Below are positions 1 through 18,874 of a stretch of DNA of 44,313 nt, piece after piece (the stretch's first letter is position 1; the number at the start of each line of letters is the position of its first letter). Below the pieces are notes generated by a model. The model was not told the DNA's origin. It was given only the letters and a program-made list of their open reading frames with translations, and did not search any database. The stretch lies in the IMG/VR virus record IMGVR_UViG_2740892271_000004; one strand, 5' to 3'. Source of the stretch: a virus. Lineage: Duplodnaviria; Heunggongvirae; Uroviricota; Caudoviricetes. A program made the position numbers and the translations under genes.

Positions 1-140
1 CATTGAGATTTTCTACAATCGTCAGCGTCGTCACTCTCGTCTGGGGAATATCTCCCCGGCAGCCTTCAGGGAAAAATATCATCAGATGGCTGCTTAAAAA
101 AAGAACAAATGGTAGTGTCCGCTATTGCCAGTACACCTCA
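1..140 (+). mobile_element. IS3-family insertion sequence, right-terminal 140 bp (window-truncated); possibly IS600-like
   Basis: Positions 2-97 translate to IEIFYNRQRRHSRLGNISPAAFREKYHQMAA-stop, a typical IS3-family OrfB C-terminus; terminus ...CCTCA at 140; the exact reverse complement of 1-140 recurs at 44174-44313. Element name is a guess from memory. Confidence 0.7.
2..97 (+). pseudogene. IS3-family transposase OrfB, C-terminal 31 codons (5' part outside window)
   Basis: In-frame translation ends with conserved YNRQRRHSRLG motif and stop at 95-97. Confidence 0.65.
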
Positions 141-339
141 GCTATTACCTTCTTCAGAGAGCCCCCAGCTACTTCCTGTGACTCTCGATGCAGCTGCCGA
201 ACAGCCAGAATCGCTCGCAGAGGACCCGAAAACCCTCAGTATCAGCTGTGAGGTAACGTTCCGGCACGGGACGCTCCGCTTCAATGGCAATGTCAGCGAA
301 AAGCTCCTGACTCTGCTGATACAGGAACTGAAGCGATGA
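141..339 (+). pseudogene. IS66-family orf1 (TnpA accessory protein), C-terminal fragment
   Basis: Open frame ending ...RFNGNVSEKLLTLLIQELKR with stop overlapping the orf2 start; N-terminus replaced by IS3 terminal sequence. Confidence 0.5.
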
Positions 340-659
340 TCCCGTTACCTTCCGGGATCAAAATTTGGCTGGTTGCCGGTATCACCGATATGAGAAATGG
401 CTTCAACGGCCTGGCTGCGAAAGTACAGACGGCGCTGAAAGACGATCCCATGTCCGGCCATGTTTTCATTTTCCGGGGCCGCAGCGGCAGTCAGGTTAAA
501 CTGCTGTGGTCCACCAGTGACGGACTGTGCCTCCTGACCAAACGGCTGGAGCGTGGGCGCTTCGCCTGGCCGTCAGCCCGTGATGGCAAAGTGTTCCTTA
601 CACAGGCGCAGCTGGCGATGCTGCTGGAAGGTATCGACTGGCGACATATAACCAGGTGA
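336..659 (+). CDS. tnpB: IS66-family orf2 (TnpB), probably truncated by a few codons at the C-terminus
   Basis: 107 aa, MIPLPSGIKIWLVAGITDMRNGFNGLAAKV...LLEGIDWR is characteristic IS66 TnpB; stop codon TGA 657-659 coincides with the proposed prophage left terminus. Confidence 0.8.
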   Translation: MIPLPSGIKIWLVAGITDMRNGFNGLAAKVQTALKDDPMSGHVFIFRGRSGSQVKLLWSTSDGLCLLTKRLERGRFAWPSARDGKVFLTQAQLAMLLEGIDWRHITR

Positions 660-822
660 ATCATTTGATACCGACAAGGGGTTTAGTGAAAGGAGGTGAA
701 ATCACCTGTAAGATACTGAAATAAAACAGGTGATGGCTAGATGTGCGGATAAGGTCTATTTGATACCGATTGTGCAATAATTAGTCATTTATTATAAAAT
801 CGGCAACTCATTTGATACTGTG
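657..822 (+). repeat. attL: candidate transposase binding sites L1 (661-674), L2 (756-769), L3 (808-820)
   Basis: Direct repeats of TTTGATAC(C/T)G with Mu-like spacing (L1 near terminus, L2/L3 about 95 and 150 bp inward); left terminus begins TG at 657. Confidence 0.6.
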
Positions 823-892
823 GTTTTAGTCTTTTAAGGCGTTCCAAACAATGCGAAATACTCGATATAGTGCAAAATGCGGGCTAATGCTA

Positions 893-1438
893 TTAACCCG
901 CTTTTGGTTCTACCGCGTTAGATTTGCGACTTCTCTCAGTTTCTTCCAAAATCTCTCTGACGCGTTCGTCAGACATACCTTCAAGCTGTAATGCAGCTAT
1001 TCTTTTCCTTCCTTCTAAGCGGATTAGATCTTGATTTTCAGGCTCTAACAACCGAGCTAAGTACTTGGCTCCATTCAGAACCAAATTTTTCGATAGCTGC
1101 TCTAAGTCTTTTTCATCAAGTGCGCTGATAATCGTCATAATTATCTTCTTGCTTTCATCTTGATTTTCCTTGATCTCACACCGATTCACTTGTGATGCAT
1201 CACTGAATCCACATAGCCACTCAACACTTACTCCTTCGATAGACGCAATCTGAAGGGCGACACTTAAGGATGGCTCAGTGCCACGAGACAGATAATTGTT
1301 TAGTGTTGAAAATGAAAGCCCCCAATCTCTTGCTGCAGCTCTGACGCTGCGGGAGCCAATCAGCCTTTTCAGACGCTCAGCAATGCTTTCTTTTCTACCA
1401 CCAGGAAAAGAAAGAGATGTTGTTGTTTGCTTGTTCAT
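893..1438 (-). CDS. c: Mu c-like repressor (HTH DNA-binding)
   Basis: 181 aa, leftward-transcribed first gene as in Mu; HTH-like segment SVRAAARDWGLSFSTLNNYL; SD AGGAAG upstream of ATG at 1438. Confidence 0.75.
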   Translation of the reverse strand: MNKQTTTSLSFPGGRKESIAERLKRLIGSRSVRAAARDWGLSFSTLNNYLSRGTEPSLSVALQIASIEGVSVEWLCGFSDASQVNRCEIKENQDESKKIIMTIISALDEKDLEQLSKNLVLNGAKYLARLLEPENQDLIRLEGRKRIAALQLEGMSDERVREILEETERSRKSNAVEPKAG

Positions 1439-1479
1439 TTTCTTTTCTTCCTATCAATTTGAAATTATTAACTTTTAGT

Positions 1480-1623
1480 GTTGTCAGCAACCATTGATCC
1501 ACAATAGACAAAAGAAAGATGTTTTTTTTGCTTTACATGAAGCAGAAGTGGATCAATACTTATATCAAACTTGATAACTAAGTTTAGTTATCAAATTTCG
1601 TAACTTTTTAGGATAGATGAATC
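1480..1623. promoter_or_regulatory. Divergent early/repressor control region with operator-like inverted repeats
   Basis: 10-bp inverted pair ATTGATCCAC (1493-1502) / GTGGATCAAT (1549-1558); 24-bp palindrome TTGATAACTAA-GT-TTAGTTATCAA (1571-1594); candidate rightward promoter -35 TTTACA 1532-1537 and -10 AATACT 1555-1560 (17 bp spacer). Confidence 0.55.
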
Positions 1624-1854
1624 ATGGCGAGAAATGAAGTTAAGCCTGATTGGCATCCTCAAAGAATTTTGGGGGAAGTCAGAGCCAGAGAAGGAAGCAT
1701 GAGGGCGCTGGCCCGTAAAGCTGGCGTGGGTCAGAACAATCTGTACAACGCGGTATACCGCCATGTTCCCAAGTATGAGGGGATTATCGCGGAATGCCTG
1801 GGGGTGCCGCCCGAGGAGATTTGGCCCAGCCGCTACATTCGTAAGGTCGCGTAA
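1624..1854 (+). CDS. ner: Ner-like DNA-binding early regulator
   Basis: 76 aa; DWHPQRI...NNLYNAV...IIAECLGVPPEEIWPSRY resembles Mu Ner (IIANALETKPEVIWPSRY); position immediately before transposase. Confidence 0.85.
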   Translation: MARNEVKPDWHPQRILGEVRAREGSMRALARKAGVGQNNLYNAVYRHVPKYEGIIAECLGVPPEEIWPSRYIRKVA

Positions 1855-1856
1855 TT

Positions 1857-3944
1857 ATGTTTGCTTCAGTTAAAGAACTGGTTGGATTACCGGGGATGCC
1901 GGGAACGGAGCAAGGCGTTCGCTATTCAATCAGGAAGTATGCAACCAGCGAAACCAGCAGACGCCGCAAGAAAGGCGCTAAAGGTTTTGAATACAGCATT
2001 GACTGTTTACCTGAAGTGACACAGCAGGCATTACGCGAACGTTATGCCCTGCAACTGATGACGCAAAAAGCCGATGAATCACCGGCTCCGGTGGTGACAA
2101 AGGCCAGACGCTCGTCTGCCGTGGTTGATGCGGTGGAGGCATATCGCGGATCACCACAACTGATGGTCGAACGCCTCAATGCCCTGACTGAAAACCAGCG
2201 CCAGGTGGCAGACGCACGCATTGCGATCGTCAGTGAGGTGCTGAAATTCACGCAACAACCCGGTTTCAGCTGCGCTAAAGCTATCCGGTTCCTCGTTAAC
2301 AGCCTGGCACGATCACAACTGGACGAGCGCATTGTGGCAATGGTTGAGACGGCGAACGCCAAAAAGGGAAACAGCCGCGCGTTGAGTGAAATCACGCTGA
2401 AACGCTGGATTGCGGCCTTTAACAAGGCACAGAACGCCGCTGAACGCCTGCTTTTACTGGCACCGGGTAAACGCCAGGAAATAAAAGCCGAAGATATTAA
2501 CTGGCTGCCCGAATTTCTGGCGCAGTATCGCCAGTCAAACGGCCGACCAATGACCGAGGCTTACGAGGATTTTGTTGCTGAATGGCAGCACCGGCACGCT
2601 GATGAGCCTTATATGCTCGATATCATGCCCTCTTATGACACCATTCGCCGCGCAATGAAGAAACTGCCGGAAGTGGTGAAACAAAAAGGCCGGGTAACTG
2701 GCAGTGAATACCGTCAGCTTGAGGGATTCACGCGCCGCGACTGGTCCAGAATGCCGGTGAATTATGTCTGGATTGGTGACGGTCACGGCATGAAGCTGAA
2801 ATGCGCGCACCCGGTTCACGGGCGGCCATTCGCACCGGAAGTGACCTTTGTTATCGACGGTGGCACGCGCTTTGTGGTGGGCTGGAGCCTTGACCTGGCT
2901 GAAAATGTTTTCGCCGTAGCCGGTGCCATACAGCACGGTATTCGCCATCATGGCAAACCGTTTCTGTATTACTCGGATAATGGCTCCGGGGAAACCGCCG
3001 ACGTCCTGGATAAGGAGATTGTGGGGATACTGCCACGACTGGGGATTAATCACCCGACAGGGATTGCCGGTAATCCGCAGGGACGGGGCATTATCGAACG
3101 GCTTAACCGCACATTACCGATGCGCATAGCCCGTAAATACCGCACCTATTTCGGGAAAGGAGCAGATCGCGAGACGTTACGTAAAACCAACCGCGATTTA
3201 CGCTCGGCATTCAGTGCCCTGCAACAGGGCAAACGGCTGAACGCCCGGCAGCAGTCAGCGATGCGTGATTTACCGTCCTGGTCTGAACTGATTGATGCCA
3301 TTCGTGACGGTGTTGAGTGGTACAACAACCGGCCGCACGATGAATTACCCATGAAGCCGAACGGTAAACATTACAGCCCGGCGGAGTTCAGAAAAAAACG
3401 CCTGGCGGAAGAGGACACGGAAATTGAATGGCTGTCCGATGTTGAACTGCGGGATATGTTCCGGCCGATGGTGGAGCGCCCTGTAAGACGCTGTGAAATA
3501 CGCTGGCTGAATAATATTTACTACGCGCCCGAGCTGCGTGACGAGCATGGCCGTAAGGTACTTATCAGCTATGACATTCATGATGCCGAACGAATTACCG
3601 TGCGCCGCCCGGATGGCAGCGTGATTTGCGAGGCGGTATGGGACGGCAATAAACGCGAAGCCTTCCCTGTCAGCGCGGAATACTACAAACAGCAGCAGCG
3701 CCTTAAAGGCATGCGTAAACGCGCAGAGGAAAAAATCCGTGATGCCGAGGATGAGGTTGTCAACGTGCTGGAGCACAAGCCGCAGGAGCCCTGGCTGGAA
3801 AACATATACCGCCCTGTGGGTAATACGGTGACCGTTCAGCAACCGGTCGCTGACGATGAACCTGATGAAGAATACGAGCGTAATTTCCAGCGGGGATTGC
3901 AACTGCTCGAAGCGAAATTAAAAGAAAGTGATCCGCTGGCCTGA
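1857..3944 (+). CDS. A: MuA-like DDE transposase
   Basis: 695 aa, third gene from left end as in Mu; size and position match MuA. Confidence 0.9.
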   Translation: MFASVKELVGLPGMPGTEQGVRYSIRKYATSETSRRRKKGAKGFEYSIDCLPEVTQQALRERYALQLMTQKADESPAPVVTKARRSSAVVDAVEAYRGSPQLMVERLNALTENQRQVADARIAIVSEVLKFTQQPGFSCAKAIRFLVNSLARSQLDERIVAMVETANAKKGNSRALSEITLKRWIAAFNKAQNAAERLLLLAPGKRQEIKAEDINWLPEFLAQYRQSNGRPMTEAYEDFVAEWQHRHADEPYMLDIMPSYDTIRRAMKKLPEVVKQKGRVTGSEYRQLEGFTRRDWSRMPVNYVWIGDGHGMKLKCAHPVHGRPFAPEVTFVIDGGTRFVVGWSLDLAENVFAVAGAIQHGIRHHGKPFLYYSDNGSGETADVLDKEIVGILPRLGINHPTGIAGNPQGRGIIERLNRTLPMRIARKYRTYFGKGADRETLRKTNRDLRSAFSALQQGKRLNARQQSAMRDLPSWSELIDAIRDGVEWYNNRPHDELPMKPNGKHYSPAEFRKKRLAEEDTEIEWLSDVELRDMFRPMVERPVRRCEIRWLNNIYYAPELRDEHGRKVLISYDIHDAERITVRRPDGSVICEAVWDGNKREAFPVSAEYYKQQQRLKGMRKRAEEKIRDAEDEVVNVLEHKPQEPWLENIYRPVGNTVTVQQPVADDEPDEEYERNFQRGLQLLEAKLKESDPLA

Positions 3945-15198: not shown

Positions 15199-16787
15199 TG
15201 GGACGCATCATTGATACTGACGGAAAACCTTTCTCCTTTGACCCGGAGATGCAGAGTGCCGCGCTGGATATTCCGCAGATTGCCAGCCGTTATATTGAAC
15301 ATCCGGCTTCGGGTATCACCCCGAACCGGGCGGCGCAGTGCCTTCGCGGGGCTGAACGTGGCGATCTGATTGCCCAGTCCGATCTGGCCGCTGATATTGA
15401 AGAAAAGGACACCCACCTTTTTGCGGAGCTGGGCAAGCGACGTCTTGCCATTCAGGGGGTGCCATGGAGTATTGAGCCGCCACCGAACGCCAGCGCGAAT
15501 GAGAAAAAGGACGCGGAAATGCTCGACGAATATCTGCATTCCGCAGACTGGTTTGATGCCATGCTGTTTGACGCCACGGATGCCATCCTGAAGGGCTATT
15601 CCTGCATGGAAATTGAGCACGGGATGCTCGGTAAAATGCACATCATCCGCGCCATCCGCTGGCGTGACAGCGGGCATTTCTGCCTTAACCCGGATGATTT
15701 GAGCGAACTGCGGCTGCGTGACGGCAGCCATGCCGGGGTGGCGTTTCAGCCCTTTGGCTGGATAGTGCATCAGTCGCGTTCACGCACCGGCTACGGTGGT
15801 GCGACGGGGCTTGTCAGAACGCTTATCTGGCCGTTCATTTTCAAAAACTATTCCGTGCGCGATCTGGCGGAATTTCTGGAGGTGTACGGCCTGCCAATGA
15901 AGGTCGGGAAATACCCGTCCGGGGCAACACCGGAGCAGAAAAGTGCCCTGATGCGGGCGGTGATGGATATCGGGCGACGTACAGGCGGGATCATCCCGGC
16001 CGGGATGTCGCTGGAGTTTCAGGCGGCAGCGAACGGTCAGGCCGATCCGTTTGAAACCATGATTTCGTGGGGTGAGCGTTCCATCTCCAAAGCAATACTC
16101 GGCGGCACGCTGACCACAGAAGCCGGAGACAAAGGCGCGCGCTCGCTGGGTGAGGTGCATAACGAGGTGCGCCGGGAAATCAGGGATTCTGATTTACGCC
16201 AGCTGGCTGCAACCCTGAACCGCGATCTGGTGTATCCGCTGTATGCCCTGAACACCGCCCACGCCATTGATATCCGTCGCCTGCCGCGTATCTGTTTCCA
16301 GACCAAAGAACCGGGGGATATCACCAAAATAGCCAGTGCGGTGATGCAACTCAGTGCGGGGATGGATATTCCTGATCCCTGGGTACGGGATCAGACCGGT
16401 ATTCCACAGCCCACGCCCGGTGAAGCCATATTCCGTGTCCGTCAGAGCAGTAATGAACCGGCCATGCCTGACAGGGAAACGCTACCGGAAAAACAGGAAA
16501 AGACAGAACAGACGGCGCTTTCAGCCCGACTGCCGGAAGCGAAAAACACGCCGCGTGATGAACTGGACGACATGGGGGACGCGGTGCCTGCCCGCCGCTT
16601 ACAGGAGGCCATCGATCCGGTGCTGGAGCCGGTCATTGATGTCATCAGAACGCGGGGGCTGGCGGAGGCACTGGCAGACCTGCCTGCCCTTTACCGTGAA
16701 ATGGATGATTCCCGCCTGATGACGCTGCTCAGTGATGCCATGTTTGCTGCGGAAATGAAGGGGATGCTGGATGGCTCAGGGGATTGA
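15198..16787 (+). CDS. Portal protein (Mu gp29-like, DUF935)
   Basis: 529 aa, GTG start overlapping terminase stop. Confidence 0.9.
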   Translation: MGRIIDTDGKPFSFDPEMQSAALDIPQIASRYIEHPASGITPNRAAQCLRGAERGDLIAQSDLAADIEEKDTHLFAELGKRRLAIQGVPWSIEPPPNASANEKKDAEMLDEYLHSADWFDAMLFDATDAILKGYSCMEIEHGMLGKMHIIRAIRWRDSGHFCLNPDDLSELRLRDGSHAGVAFQPFGWIVHQSRSRTGYGGATGLVRTLIWPFIFKNYSVRDLAEFLEVYGLPMKVGKYPSGATPEQKSALMRAVMDIGRRTGGIIPAGMSLEFQAAANGQADPFETMISWGERSISKAILGGTLTTEAGDKGARSLGEVHNEVRREIRDSDLRQLAATLNRDLVYPLYALNTAHAIDIRRLPRICFQTKEPGDITKIASAVMQLSAGMDIPDPWVRDQTGIPQPTPGEAIFRVRQSSNEPAMPDRETLPEKQEKTEQTALSARLPEAKNTPRDELDDMGDAVPARRLQEAIDPVLEPVIDVIRTRGLAEALADLPALYREMDDSRLMTLLSDAMFAAEMKGMLDGSGD

Positions 16788-18102
16788 TTTAGGTTATGCC
16801 GCCACGCTTCCCTCAAAAGAGACGGTGGCATACTTCCGCGCCAAAGGGGCGCATATCAGCTGGAACTGGTTCGAAACAGACGCGGATGTTCATGCCCGCT
16901 CATTCACGGCAGCAAAAACGGCACGGCTGGATGTGGTAACCACATTACAGGCCGAAGTGCAGCGGGCCATTGATGAGGGGATTTCACAGAAAGAATTTAT
17001 CCGCACACTGACGCCACGCCTGCAAAAGCTGGGATGGTGGGGAAAGCAGATTGTGGTGGACAGCGACGGTAACGCGGAAGAAGTGCAGCAGGGCAGTCCC
17101 CGTCGTCTGGCGCTGATTTACAACGTGAACACCCGTGTGGCTTACAATGCCGGGCGTTACACGCAGATGATGAACAACACGGACACGCATCCGTTCTGGC
17201 AGTATGTGGCGGTCATGGACAGCCGTACCCGCCCGTCGCATTCCGCCCTTAACGGTCTGGTATTCCGCTATGACGATCCGTTCTGGAAAACACACTACCC
17301 GCCCAATGGCTGGAACTGCCGCTGCCGTGTGCGGCCATTGTCTCAGGCCCGTCTGGATGCAATGGGGTTATCCGTTTCATCCGGTGAGGATCATCTCTCC
17401 ACCCGCAATGTTGAGGCTGGCGTGGATAAACAGACCGGAGAAGTCAGAGAAATGCCGGTGACCACATATTCAGATGGCGCCAGAACCATGACACCGGATG
17501 TGGGCTGGTCATATAACCCCGGCTCGGCAGCGTTCGGCACAGACCAGGCGCTGATCCGCAAACTGATCGAGGTGAAAAGCCCGGCGTTACGGGAAATGGT
17601 GGTTCAGGAGATGAACAACAGCCCGGAGCGGCAGCTGGCGTTCCGCATCTGGGCAAAAAACATCATGCAGACCCGGCGAGGTGGTAACGATATCCGCACG
17701 CTGGGCTTTATGACTGAAAGCATTGCGCAGGCAGTGGAAAGCCGGACGGGAACGCCACCGGCCCGCCTGCTGGCGATGAGCGGTAAAAATGTGCTCCATG
17801 CGGACAGTGTGAAACATCAGAATGACGGCATCGCTCTGACGCCGGAGGACTTCGGGCGCTTACCGGCAATGCTGGCAAGGCCAAAAGCGGTACTGTGGGA
17901 CAAACGGCACAACAATCTGATGTATATCGTGGAAAATCAGGATGGCAGTGTGCAGATTGCCGTTAATGCACCGTACAGTCTGAAACGTCAGCCCGACAAA
18001 CTGGATGTGATTGTGAATGCTTACCGGGTTATCAATATGGATAAGCTGAAATCGGATATCCGGGGCGGAATGCTTGAGGTGCTGGAAGGACAAATTGATT
18101 AA
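16771..18102 (+). CDS. Head morphogenesis protein, Mu F (gp30)-like
   Basis: 443 aa, follows portal. Confidence 0.85.
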   Translation: MAQGIDLGYAATLPSKETVAYFRAKGAHISWNWFETDADVHARSFTAAKTARLDVVTTLQAEVQRAIDEGISQKEFIRTLTPRLQKLGWWGKQIVVDSDGNAEEVQQGSPRRLALIYNVNTRVAYNAGRYTQMMNNTDTHPFWQYVAVMDSRTRPSHSALNGLVFRYDDPFWKTHYPPNGWNCRCRVRPLSQARLDAMGLSVSSGEDHLSTRNVEAGVDKQTGEVREMPVTTYSDGARTMTPDVGWSYNPGSAAFGTDQALIRKLIEVKSPALREMVVQEMNNSPERQLAFRIWAKNIMQTRRGGNDIRTLGFMTESIAQAVESRTGTPPARLLAMSGKNVLHADSVKHQNDGIALTPEDFGRLPAMLARPKAVLWDKRHNNLMYIVENQDGSVQIAVNAPYSLKRQPDKLDVIVNAYRVINMDKLKSDIRGGMLEVLEGQID

Positions 18103-18185
18103 CGGTCAGTGGCGGGGGTCGAACCCGCATACATGATCCACCCGGAGGCAGGCACCGACTTTACCAGTTAAGCGTACACTGACCG
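18103..18185. other. Structured element in F-G intergenic region: 9-bp closing stem enclosing a tRNA T-arm-like hairpin
   Basis: CGGTCAGTG (18103-18111) pairs with CACTGACCG (18177-18185); inner hairpin GCGGG-GGTCGAA-CCCGC; on the minus strand this reads GCGGG-TTCGACC-CCCGC next to the 3' acceptor-like strand; U-rich tract follows on the plus strand. Confidence 0.4.
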
Positions 18186-18223
18186 CCTGTTTATTTTATA
18201 TTCATCCTTTATGCGGAGGCAAT

Positions 18224-18697
18224 ATGTCATCCATTGATGCAGCTGTCGTTGTTGACGTTACGCGTCTCCAGCGAGTGTTTGCCCGGCTTCAGTTTGTGGG
18301 CGGCGGAAAAGACCTGGCCCGCAGTGTGGCGGCGAGTCTTCTGTCATCGTCAGAAATGGCGTTTGAGCAGGAAAAAGAGCCGGATGGTGAACGCTGGCAT
18401 GACTGGTCAGATCCTTACCGTGAGTGGCGTACCCGTAAGGGATACACGCCCGGCAAAATCCTGACGCTGAACGGCGATCTGGCCCGCCGCCTGACCACGG
18501 ATTATGGCGATACCTGGGCGCTGATTGGATCAAATGAACCTTATGCAGCCATTCATCAGTGGGGTGGCCTGCCTGGTATGCCACCGGGACCGGCGGCCAT
18601 TGGCGCACGTCCGTATATGGGCTTTGATCAGGTGGCAGAACAGGAGATCATGGACGAAATCAGAAAACGCTTTAAAAAGGCCACAGAAACGCCGTAA
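18224..18697 (+). CDS. Virion morphogenesis protein, Mu G (gp31)-like
   Basis: 157 aa, SD GGAGG before ATG. Confidence 0.75.
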   Translation: MSSIDAAVVVDVTRLQRVFARLQFVGGGKDLARSVAASLLSSSEMAFEQEKEPDGERWHDWSDPYREWRTRKGYTPGKILTLNGDLARRLTTDYGDTWALIGSNEPYAAIHQWGGLPGMPPGPAAIGARPYMGFDQVAEQEIMDEIRKRFKKATETP

Positions 18698-18874
18698 TGG
18701 TTTAAGGTATGCAAACGTATTACCTTACCCCCTTCAGGCGCGTGTCGTGATTTTCTAACCTGTATTTAACGGGCTTTAAAATCTGCGTGAAGCGCCTTTC
18801 TCATTCCCCCCCTGTCAGCACTTTCTGAAGTCCCGCAAAACCAGCCCCAAAAATACCCGGCTTATGCTGCCGGT

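Follow-up and report, generated by a model that had tools for sequence, protein, structure and literature searches.

The window, that is, the whole stretch of 44,313 nucleotides analyzed here, carried the F and G genes of a Mu-like prophage late operon on its plus strand. Gene F, a homologue of Mu gp30 matched by the Pfam models Phage_Mu_F and MuF_C, spanned 16771–18102. Gene G, a homologue of Mu gp31 (Pfam Phage_tail_S), lay downstream at 18224–18697, with its ATG at 18224. The TAA stop of F ended at 18102 and abutted an 83-nt unit on the minus strand (18103–18185), which we identified as a tRNA-like RNA gene closed by a 9-bp stem.

Direct reading confirmed two elements of the preliminary description of this site. 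The outer stem is perfect over its 9 bp, CGGTCAGTG (18103–18111) pairing with CACTGACCG (18177–18185), and the minus strand, read from 18128 to 18112, contains the T arm GCGGG-TTCGACC-CCCGC, which directly adjoins the 3' strand of the outer stem. In the RNA, the 5' strand of this acceptor-like stem (CGGUCAGUG, 18177–18185) provides two extension pairs and seven acceptor pairs with the 3' strand (CACUGACCG, 18103–18111). The tRNA-equivalent core with its 7-bp acceptor stem is thus 18105–18183, and the last two bases of the acceptor-like 3' strand pair with the leader. No CCA was encoded after the stem in the window copy, nor was it consistent in the relatives.

The preliminary description had found neither an anticodon arm nor a D arm. 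The first part of this held and the second did not. The Rfam alignment placed a D arm, GCUU-AACUGGUA-AAGU, at 18158–18173, preceded on its 5' side by an invariant U8-A9-C linker (18174–18176), and the T arm, GCGGG-UUCGACC-CCCGC, at 18112–18128. The D arm carries A14, A15, G18, G19 and A21. The core and elbow nucleotides of tRNA are in place in the window copy (U8–A14, A15–U48, G18G19 with T-loop UUC at 54–56, and U54–A58). At the site of the anticodon arm, folding gave a different arm (18133–18155), whose outer stem (GUG/CAU) is separated by a small internal loop from an inner 5-bp stem (CUGCC/GGUGG). The inner stem is capped by a UCCG tetraloop (18143–18146), without a 7-nt loop.

On the minus strand, the Rfam tRNA model (RF00005) aligned acceptor, D and T arms end to end at 18104–18183, with 31.0 bits and an E value of 1.3e-4 when 501 nt were searched. 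This passed the gathering score of 29 narrowly and bore out the earlier claim of a tRNA likeness on this strand. A standard Rfam run on the whole window reported nothing for the element. Six of 13 relatives scored 31.8–37.8 bits with the same model, and genuine tRNAs typically score far above 31–38 bits. The model skipped the anticodon-arm region, where 24 nt were present as against 18 expected. RF00005 was the only family to appear, at an E cutoff of 10 for the window region and 0.1 for the 13 relatives, and the other Rfam families (C4/CI antisense RNA, YrlA, tmRNA and tRNA-Sec) gave no match.

ARAGORN found no tRNA in the window. It called none among 53 core family members, as opposed to all eight real tRNAs caught by the same search pattern. 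On the other hand, NCBI's PGAP labels the identical sequence in E. coli genomes as an 80-nt 'tRNA-OTHER' on the same strand, and one relative as 'tRNA-Tyr'. The window copy also has a G-1:C73 pair, a feature of tRNA-His. These labels and this pair, together with the narrow passing of the gathering score, would be accounted for by an unusual but genuine decoding or aminoacylated tRNA, such as a suppressor or one with a non-standard anticodon arm. We regard this as very unlikely, given the replacement arm that is too long and has no 7-nt loop, the ARAGORN results, the low Rfam scores, and the base-paired 3' end with no CCA encoded. Moreover, G-1:C73 was not conserved (G–C in 17, A–U in 15 and U–A in 4 sequences of the family alignment), and the G3·U70 pair was absent from the alignment.

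The earlier statement that the element is not a functional tRNA was therefore correct in the sense of a decoding tRNA, in view of the silence of ARAGORN, the closed UCCG hairpin and the skipped anticodon arm. In a few divergent members, however, ARAGORN does read an anticodon from a 7-nt loop (L274, 'Ile tat'; L290, 'Lys ttt'), so that the ancestral state, or some of the present members, may be real tRNAs.

A family covariance model built from relatives of the window copy (R1) matched exactly 18103–18185 on the minus strand with 85.8 bits (E about 4e-19, by a rough calibration), while genuine tRNAs reached at most 54 bits. No chance match to the 23-nt core motif was expected in the window. Folding energy was unremarkable on both strands (z = -1.76 for minus and -1.72 for plus) and was uninformative as evidence. 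The family-consistent cloverleaf of the window copy had -29.3 kcal/mol, compared with -32.2 for the minimum free energy structure.

Covariation among 46 distinct relatives, aligned with MAFFT, supported the structure. Pairing across its four helices reached 90.2%, compared with 39–51% when the partners were slid, and double-sided changes occurred at 17 of the 23 pairs. The covariation score was 0.627 against at most 0.19 in the controls, and none of 500 shuffles reached the observed values. In the acceptor-like stem, eight of nine pairs had changed on both sides with 93% of the cells paired. The two extension pairs were formed in 36 and 39 of the 46 sequences, with four to five pair types each, and in some lineages the stem was extended to 10–13 bp. 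The D stem covaried at three of four pairs. The T helix was 99.1% paired, with double changes at two pairs.

In the arm replacing the anticodon arm, four of the five outer-stem pairs had changed on both sides, and the inner hairpin varied in sequence and length from lineage to lineage, all being different. A closed hairpin, often with a UNCG or GNRA loop, replaced the anticodon arm in every member. UAC, AA and GGUA were invariant among the 46 sequences, the A-U preceding the T stem was nearly so in the family, and U8, A14, A15, G18G19, U48 and the T-loop UUCGA were invariant or nearly so; the loop part of this conservation is partly built in, since the first 46 sequences were retrieved by a pattern fixing parts of the D and T loops. 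The stems, promoter and synteny are independent of these constraints.

The same alignment fixed the strand of the RNA as minus, because G·U pairs outnumbered A·C pairs by 112 to 15, giving 90.2% pairing for the minus-sense RNA and 81.0% for the plus-sense RNA. This bears on the earlier proposal that the plus strand may act as an attenuator or RNA-processing site in the late transcript, and equally on a terminator there. The plus strand does fold (-28.8 kcal/mol), and CCUGUUUAUUUUAU follows directly after the closing stem. However, the scan found no terminator-like site there, a 9-bp stem around 65 nt does not resemble an intrinsic terminator, and the downstream gene G must be expressed. The supposed U-rich tract turned out to be the complement of a predicted antisense -10 box, which in the relatives reads TATACT or TATAAT, the complement of which is not U-rich. 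With the G·U bias favoring the opposite strand, the proposal is highly improbable.

The RNA was also better conserved than its surroundings. In each of 12 comparisons it was closer to the window copy (63–96% identity) than the final 300 nt of F were, and it also surpassed the G coding DNA in all comparisons except L221. The excess over the F coding DNA indicates purifying selection on the RNA gene. The preliminary description had also offered a remnant of a tRNA-derived sequence. The tRNA-derived look without an anticodon would suit a decaying pseudogene or a functionless relic at the DNA level, for instance a former integration site. This reading is strongly disfavored and retains scarcely any probability: all four helices carry compensatory changes that keep the pairing, place, strand and promoter are kept down to 41% F identity, and the RNA outdoes the adjacent F coding DNA in every comparison.

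Upstream of the RNA on the minus strand, a promoter scan predicted a -10 box, TAAAAT, at 18193–18198 (with TATAAA at 18195–18200 as an alternative) and a -35 box, TTGCCT, at 18217–18222, with an 18-nt spacer. From the -10 box, transcription is predicted to start at G/G (18186–18187), 1–2 nt before the closing stem. The single-sequence scan was not significant alone (one promoter found, 0.7 expected). Across the family, a -10 box matching TATAAT at five or more of six positions within 20 nt upstream was present in 42 of 49 distinct lineages, as against 2 of 49 in a control window, and it mostly ended 6–9 nt before the closing stem. The predicted -35 box overlaps the complement of the ribosome-binding site of G (GGAGG, 18215–18219), and the conservation of the two is inseparable.

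An intrinsic terminator directly followed the RNA in 5 of 40 lineages by scan and in one more by eye, and one stand-alone copy was followed by a run of seven U. The window lineage had no terminator after the RNA, and its transcript may run antisense into F, which would also fit a cis-antisense role. One member, L001, has tandem copies separated by a 24-nt spacer with no second promoter visible, which would imply processing of the transcript. The predicted leader is short and paired, and this argues against efficient RNase P cleavage at the 5' end of the acceptor.

A role in cis would take the form of antisense action or transcriptional interference: the promoter would fire into F head-on, or the transcript, being fully complementary to the F–G junction of the late mRNA, would tune or silence F and G, for example by limiting the leakage of late expression in lysogens, with the tRNA-like fold only stabilizing the RNA. 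The element was antisense to F and G in all cases, the predicted -35 box overlaps the G ribosome-binding site in the DNA, the lack of a terminator in most lineages, including that of the window, may let transcription continue into F, and the overlap that F and G have in Mu is lost where the element is inserted. Yet island and stand-alone chromosomal copies have no F or G nearby, several lineages terminate immediately after the RNA, and antisense pairing has no need of the tRNA tertiary nucleotides that are invariant or nearly so. The antisense orientation itself would be expected just as much of any gene that sits inside an operon and brings along a terminator or RNase P-like signals of its own. 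We consider a cis role unlikely.

The position of the RNA gene was constant. Wherever F (gp30) and G (gp31) homologues flanked a variant, it lay between them and antisense. Variants of distinct sequence numbered at least 45, and F identity ranged from 99% down to 41%. Among 80 loci picked by F homology alone, 45 had a match, all antisense and directly after F, and ten further matches came up among the F-homology loci when the filters were off. The element was present in 55 of 78 loci chosen by F homology alone, and it is conserved at this site in the majority of the Mu relatives sampled, Mu itself excepted. The gap between F and G was bimodal, either at most 11 nt or about 85–135 nt. In Mu, Pseudomonas JBD67 and Shewanella MuM16-1, F and G overlapped or abutted, as they did in 21 of the 78 sampled loci where a G gene was detectable.

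The comparison with the same intergenic region in Mu, proposed earlier, had no object. In Mu, F extends to 17392, past the start of G at 17389, leaving no F–G intergenic region, and Mu is without the element because the two genes overlap there. The covariance model found no match in Mu, JBD67 or MuM16-1. It also found none in Alteromonadaceae B23, where the G homologue lies among other genes, so that no F–G comparison applies. The G matches in D108 and SfMu showed the same overlap with the annotated F gene that Mu has. A copy in Pasteurella phage Pmp9, which was outside the training set of the model, scored 74.6 bits in the same place. BLAST against cultured phages matched only two Stx-phage records with an inserted Mu-like phage, and 14 family variants joined into one query gave no match among cultured phages. 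Pmp9, reached through G homology and the covariance model, was the only other cultured-phage carrier found.

Copies also occurred away from F and G. Two tandem copies stood behind a mor gene in a satellite-like island, another small element had one copy beside Mor and a gpT capsid gene, and stand-alone chromosomal copies were present in Rheinheimera and Alishewanella. At least 15–17 of the 120 loci listed by a pattern scan of contigs were family members, the rest being mostly real tRNAs (from Acidobacteria and others), and the host range given here is a lower bound. An attachment-site role was considered for the L212 satellite-like island and was rejected. A real tRNA-Ile is the integration site of this island. 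The two tRNA-like copies of the island, both at the far end and pointing outward, are cargo and not att duplicates. The neighborhood of the element contained nothing indicating a partner protein.

The copies away from F and G suggest that the RNA would act in trans. The reading that best accommodates the evidence is that the RNA mimics a tRNA without decoding and comes from a gene of its own, an accessory 'RNA moron', and that it probably works in trans on a factor that binds the tRNA body; we give this reading about an even chance. On this view, 18103–18185 is an independent small-RNA gene on the minus strand, antisense to the late operon of the prophage. A sigma-70-type promoter (-10 TAAAAT, 18198–18193) is predicted to start the RNA 1–2 nt before the element. 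The RNA folds into a tRNA body with acceptor-like stem, D arm, T arm and all elbow and core nucleotides. Two decoding features are absent: the 7-nt anticodon loop, exchanged for a closed lineage-specific hairpin (UCCG here), and the free NCCA tail, lost by sealing of the acceptor end with at least two extra leader–trailer pairs. With the loop replaced and the end sealed, the RNA as encoded would therefore neither read codons nor be charged.

The accessory cassette of promoter, RNA and, in some lineages, terminator is inserted between F and G in a large share of the Mu-like phages. Once expressed and its ends matured, the RNA would imitate the tRNA body stably and act in trans, occupying or recruiting a factor that recognizes the elbow and the acceptor/T helix. 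Candidate factors would be a host tRNA-processing or tRNA-binding protein, a tRNA-directed defense effector, or a protein of the phage or satellite. The sealed acceptor end argues against a decoy role for enzymes that need a free CCA end. The comparisons establish what the gene is, its strand, structure, conservation and promoter signal, and that it lacks an anticodon; its function, and with it the expression of the RNA, the maturation of its ends, its partner and its benefit to the phage, is inferred.

The variable hairpin allows a different reading, in which the tRNA body would act as a natural scaffold providing stability and clean ends, and the lineage-specific hairpin would be an aptamer or base-pairing module. 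The insert lies at the very site that holds the cargo in engineered tRNA scaffolds. Inserts ranged from 4-bp tetraloop hairpins to 30–40 nt with 10–16-nt loops (L015, L072, L001b and L077), and one subgroup keeps an AA/CAC internal loop with a covarying inner stem. Many inserts, however, are minimal stems capped by UNCG or GNRA loops that leave nothing free to pair, the insert sequence was not conserved between lineages, and no complementary target was noticed. A scaffold for a working module is in our view quite unlikely.

On a wider scale, we propose tentatively, and with much less than even confidence, that the non-decoding mimic represents a widespread, undescribed class of anticodon-less tRNA mimics. 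In Gammaproteobacteria, Mu-like transposable phages and small satellite-like elements that encode Mor would both have this accessory gene as a hallmark, and the mimics would serve as an RNA weapon or cofactor in phage–host or phage–satellite conflict. They might, for example, act as decoys for immune effectors or processing enzymes that recognize the tRNA body and not the anticodon.

A full-text literature search on tRNA-like RNAs in Mu-like or transposable phages, prophage decoys and anti-defense tRNA mimics returned no description of this RNA. An EHEC sRNA paper mentioning Sp18 dealt with a different RNA, and in two papers on Mu-like phages tRNA came up only in other contexts or, for vB_CibM-P1, as a tRNAscan run that found none. 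As far as we found, the gene seems to be undescribed. About 70% of the sampled Mu-like F–G junctions carry it. Mu, the textbook transposable phage, happens to lack it, and it would have gone unstudied for that reason; annotation pipelines miss it or record it as 'tRNA-OTHER'.

The mimic would be a natural case of tRNA mimicry for non-translational use, in which the whole tRNA body is kept and both decoding ends are removed. The identity of its binding partner could reveal a new RNA-based layer of phage–host or phage–satellite interaction, few RNA-based counter-defenses being known. It may also offer a ready-made, naturally optimized tRNA scaffold. In practical terms, the element should be left out of phage tRNA counts in studies of codon usage and tRNA repertoires.

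Among known systems, canonical and phage-encoded tRNAs (RF00005) share with the element the 7-bp acceptor stem, the D arm with G18G19, the UUCGA T loop, U8, A14 and A15–U48. Unlike these tRNAs, the element has no anticodon stem-loop, has one extra invariant C between position 9 and the D stem, does not encode CCA, and lengthens the acceptor helix by leader–trailer pairing. Its predicted start at the base of the stem would leave it almost no leader.

The ends of the C4 and CI RNAs are made by tRNA-processing enzymes (RNase P). The C4 RNA of P1/P7 and the CI RNA of P4 (RF01695) are antisense immunity RNAs which, like the element, are small structured regulatory RNAs of phages or satellites, about 80 nt long. 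They are cut from the leader of the operon that they control and act by loop–target pairing, whereas the element has tRNA D and T loops and a tetraloop, a (predicted) promoter of its own on the opposite strand, and no match to their Rfam family.

In YrlA, a bacterial Y-like RNA, it is the acceptor-like stem that reportedly has a cap, and the 5' and 3' ends make up the Ro-binding stem where a tRNA has its anticodon stem. The topology of the element is the reverse, with the ends forming the acceptor stem and the anticodon position capped. YrlA (PMC4201824) resembles it in being non-decoding, in having a tRNA-like D/T elbow and in occurring also in phages; the element has no rsr gene nearby and no Rfam match to YrlA.

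The tRNA-like domain of tmRNA likewise combines an acceptor and a T arm without an anticodon. The element differs in its full D stem, and in lacking the G3·U70 alanine identity pair, an mRNA-like domain and an Rfam match to tmRNA. Ranquet et al., in 2001, reportedly found the induction of Mu prophage to require tmRNA in its tRNA-like function, which is a lead only.

Engineered tRNA scaffolds have the same general design, a tRNA body with the anticodon arm swapped for a structured insert. In those of Ponchon and Dardel (2007), the insert reportedly replaces the anticodon arm and the chimeras are stable in E. coli. The element is instead natural, mostly carries minimal hairpin inserts, and has its acceptor end sealed.

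Finally, like the morons of temperate phages, it is a self-contained cassette between two late genes with a patchy distribution, present in some relatives and cleanly absent in others, and a promoter of its own, as expected of a moron, is predicted from the sequence. It differs from them in that its product would be an RNA instead of a protein, and in that it is always antisense.

The tRNA-like element (18103–18185, minus strand) occupies most of the 121-nt gap between F (16771–18102; Pfam Phage_Mu_F and MuF_C) and G (18224–18697; Pfam Phage_tail_S), both on the plus strand. The window carries a Mu-like prophage, and the same DNA is annotated in E. coli FORC_069 with Mu transposase, Gam, Mor, lysis genes, portal (DUF935), F, G, protease, gpT head subunit and contractile tail. 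Downstream, a 177-nt gap (18698–18874) separates G from the protease gene; in the Mu record NC_000929, a strong gyrase site is annotated at 17879–17880, immediately past G.

Reading of the sequence bore out two features of the preliminary description: the outer stem of 9 bp and, on the minus strand, the T arm GCGGG-UUCGACC-CCCGC. Its statement that no D arm can be folded was overturned by a canonical minus-strand D arm, GCUU-AACUGGUA-AAGU. The Rfam tRNA model aligned the acceptor, D and T arms over model positions 1–71 at 31.0 bits (gathering score 29; E=1.3e-4), skipping the anticodon region, which has 24 nt versus 18 in the model. RNA folding gave this region as a 5-bp stem capped by a UCCG tetraloop, in agreement with the earlier claim that an anticodon arm is lacking. 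ARAGORN called no tRNA at the element, a routine Rfam run on the entire window reported no match, and the folding energy was ordinary on both strands (z about −1.7). The PGAP annotation of many E. coli genomes lists this sequence as 'tRNA-OTHER' (80 nt, minus strand); of 5426 complete genomes of the species, 168 have the element.

Pattern scans, two on viral contigs and one on species-representative genomes, recovered at least 46 distinct relatives; the patterns constrained the D and T loops only in part. Wherever F or G homologues were found by tblastn with the F and G of the window, the element lay between them on the opposite strand, from 99% down to 41% F identity. Among the matches listed, the named hosts were all Gammaproteobacteria, including at least Escherichia, Edwardsiella, Erwinia, Photorhabdus, Leminorella, Gilliamella, Shewanella, Alishewanella, Marinomonas, Marinobacterium and, via phage Pmp9, Pasteurella. 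The RNA was closer to the window copy than the adjacent 300 nt of F was in 12/12 comparisons (e.g. 96% versus 70% identity).

Covariation was tested in a structure-independent MAFFT alignment of 46 sequences. The structure tested comprised four helices: acceptor (9 bp), D (4 bp), the outer stem of the middle arm (5 bp) and T (5 bp). Standard pairs filled 90.2% of the cells, versus 39–51% when the partners were slid by 1–3 columns. Changes on both sides were seen in 17 of the 23 pairs (9–11 in the slid versions), and the covariation score was 0.627 (at most 0.19 when slid), which none of 500 shuffles matched. G·U pairs far outnumbered A·C pairs (112 versus 15). The RNA thus corresponds to the minus strand of the window.

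Near- or full invariance in these 46 sequences, whose retrieval had fixed parts of the D and T loops, was seen at G7, U8, A9, an extra C, A14, A15, G18, G19, U20, A21, G52, G53, UUCGA, C61 and C62. The A-U directly 5' of the T stem was conserved to the same degree, giving an A15-U48 Levitt pair. A covariance model built from the relatives scored the family at 60 bits or more (window copy, 85.8 bits) and genuine tRNAs at no more than 54 bits. The Pmp9 copy, which was outside the model seed, scored 74.6 bits and lay antisense between F and G of that phage.

The family differed from tRNAs in several respects. In every core member, the D-to-T region consisted of a 3–5-bp outer stem, a small internal loop and an inner hairpin. 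The inner hairpin varied in sequence and length by lineage, frequently with UUCG, UCCG, GCAA or CUUG caps, and the whole region ranged from 21 to 50 nt. ARAGORN called none of the 53 core members, as against all eight real tRNAs caught by the same pattern. The extra C, which is invariant, sits between position 9 and the D stem. The window copy encodes no CCA after the stem, and the relatives do not consistently encode one. Two positions beyond the 7-bp acceptor stem were paired in 36/46 and 39/46 sequences, each using four to five types of pair, and in some lineages the acceptor helix was extended to 10–13 bp. The 3' partner of the extension pairs frequently overlaps the F stop codon, which suggested that the leader was the side that adapted. 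As encoded, the predicted RNA is unable to decode and has no free acceptor end to offer.

Of 49 distinct lineages, 42 have a match of at least 5/6 to TATAAT in the 20 nt ahead of the closing stem, as against 2 in a control window 50 nt further upstream. The predicted −10 hexamers (TAAAAT, TATACT, TATAAT or TATATT) mostly ended 6–9 nt ahead of the stem, which places the predicted start at the stem base. In the window, a promoter scan gave the predicted −10 box TAAAAT at 18198–18193 (minus strand), with TTGCCT 18 nt upstream. The plus-strand 'U-rich tract' noted earlier behind the hairpin is the complement of this box. A strong intrinsic terminator was found right behind the RNA in five lineages by scan and in one by eye, and one stand-alone copy is followed by a run of seven U. 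In the window lineage no terminator was found after the RNA, and the F stop codon comes 0–2 nt on. On these signals, the RNA gene is predicted to be a transcription unit of its own. The comparisons established a conserved gene, with a promoter predicted to be its own, whose RNA keeps the whole tRNA body and drops both decoding ends.

A further sample comprised 80 viral contigs picked by F homology alone; as the top 80 among at least 596 matches, it is biased towards relatives of the query alignment. The family model matched 45 of these 80, all opposite the F strand and beginning within about 60 nt of the F stop. With filters off, significant matches at the same place were obtained in 10 of the 12 remaining long-gap loci. 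The F-G gap was bimodal, at most 11 nt or about 85–135 nt. Of 78 junctions in this best-80 sample, about 55 carried the element and 21 were cleanly without it. One locus (L272) gave a weak match only (E=0.46). In another (L276, 3811–3920), a 108-nt gap holds a different, non-tRNA-like insert, which gave no family-model match; this insert shows long terminal complementarity (CCCATGATG...CATCATGGG).

By the family model and the F-G junction, the element is absent from Mu, Pseudomonas JBD67 and Shewanella MuM16-1. A Mu-like arrangement is also seen in D108 and SfMu, where the annotated F gene and the G match overlap. The comparison with the equivalent intergenic region of Mu, suggested in the preliminary description, had no counterpart to draw on, since F and G of Mu overlap by ATGA. 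This is probably why the element was left unstudied.

Two E. coli prophage loci showed local changes. In O157:H7 Z1825 (L004, 318–1495), an IS3-family element stands in place of the 3' part of F and stops about 20 nt short of the RNA gene, leaving this gene, its promoter region and G intact. In strain 97-3250 and many O157 strains (L003, 1510–1592), the T loop is TTCAACC (G57 to A). This variant is 99.3% identical to the window copy, yet has no PGAP tRNA annotation, and the element is thus annotated inconsistently across near-identical prophages.

Copies were also found outside the F-G slot. In E. coli strain 48 (L212, NZ_CP166879.1 705,985–714,607), a roughly 8.5-kb island integrated at tRNA-Ile encodes integrase, Ash, three Icd-like proteins, RepA-type helicase, SSB, PerC and Mor. 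It is closed by two tandem family members (L001, 2995–3193), labelled 'tRNA-OTHER' and 'tRNA-Tyr' by PGAP. A single promoter-like box lies ahead of the first copy; the second follows after a spacer of just 24 nt. The island was found in 14 of the 5426 E. coli genomes and appears to be a satellite of Mu-like phages. Its mor-like gene is separated from the first copy by a spacer (L001, 3196–3472) with a run of GTGAAA / GGTGAAA(G/T)A repeats, which may be binding sites or iterons.

A second small element (L076 2292–5796, also L044 and L067) carries Mor, a Mu-type gpT capsid (major head) protein and a 184-aa protein, with a DUF2971 gene present or absent and the family member convergent, after the protein genes. 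A 786-aa protein is also encoded in L044 and L076. This element may be a capsid-encoding satellite of Mu-like phages.

One stand-alone copy adjoins a P-type ATPase gene in Rheinheimera. Another, in Alishewanella aestuarii (L155, 4455–4528), is separated by about 70 nt from a CRISPR array (4596 to beyond 7000; at least 40 type I-F-like 28-nt repeats at 60-nt spacing), whose degenerate trailer end faces it. In two Marinobacterium species (L127 6647–7973 and L194 2523–2607), an IS605/TnpB end abuts family copies. In L127, the IS605-type right end directly adjoins the tRNA-like gene at its 5' end, and OrfB/TnpB (PF07282, PF01385) lies 246 nt upstream. L194 has the same upstream flank and junction position, and no TnpB gene was identified at the locus. 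The RNA gene would here be the flank of the IS605-type end, where a TnpB guide would lie.

The copies outside the F-G slot argue for a function independent of F and G in cis. The leading alternative, a role at the F-G junction as a cis-antisense or interference element, we consider less likely in view of the stand-alone copies, the terminators of some lineages and the conserved tertiary nucleotides.

A few divergent members have 7-nt loops, namely L274 and one of three tandem copies in L290 (3850–4159, antisense within a 340-nt F-G gap). ARAGORN called one L290 copy tRNA-Lys (ttt) and the L274 copy tRNA-Ile (tat). These may be ancestral-type members with real anticodon loops, and the family may therefore have descended from a real tRNA gene formerly at the F-G site.

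On the favoured reading the RNA would act in trans, with host RNA polymerase transcribing it from the strand opposite the late operon. The antisense orientation would be expected, since terminator or tRNA-processing signals of a sense copy would cut or terminate the late mRNA. The RNA would be stabilized by its tRNA-like fold and by burial of both ends in a helix, and would act via whatever factor recognizes the tRNA elbow and the acceptor/T helix. Candidate partners are RNase P, the CCA-adding enzyme, T-arm modification enzymes, SmpB and the tmRNA pathway, and defence effectors that bind the tRNA body. Mu induction depends on the tmRNA pathway, which we take only as a lead. Nucleases directed at the tRNA body exist, as a Septu system is reported to cut tRNA-Tyr in its variable loop (PMC13096335).

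Beyond the marginal tRNA match, no Rfam family covers the element. No description was found in open-access papers and bioRxiv; an older one may exist in a subscription journal. Known tRNA-like non-coding RNAs include YrlA, the tRNA-like domain of tmRNA, the C4/CI RNAs and viral tRNA-like structures. The present family differs from all of these in its topology and genomic setting, and in its defined synteny.
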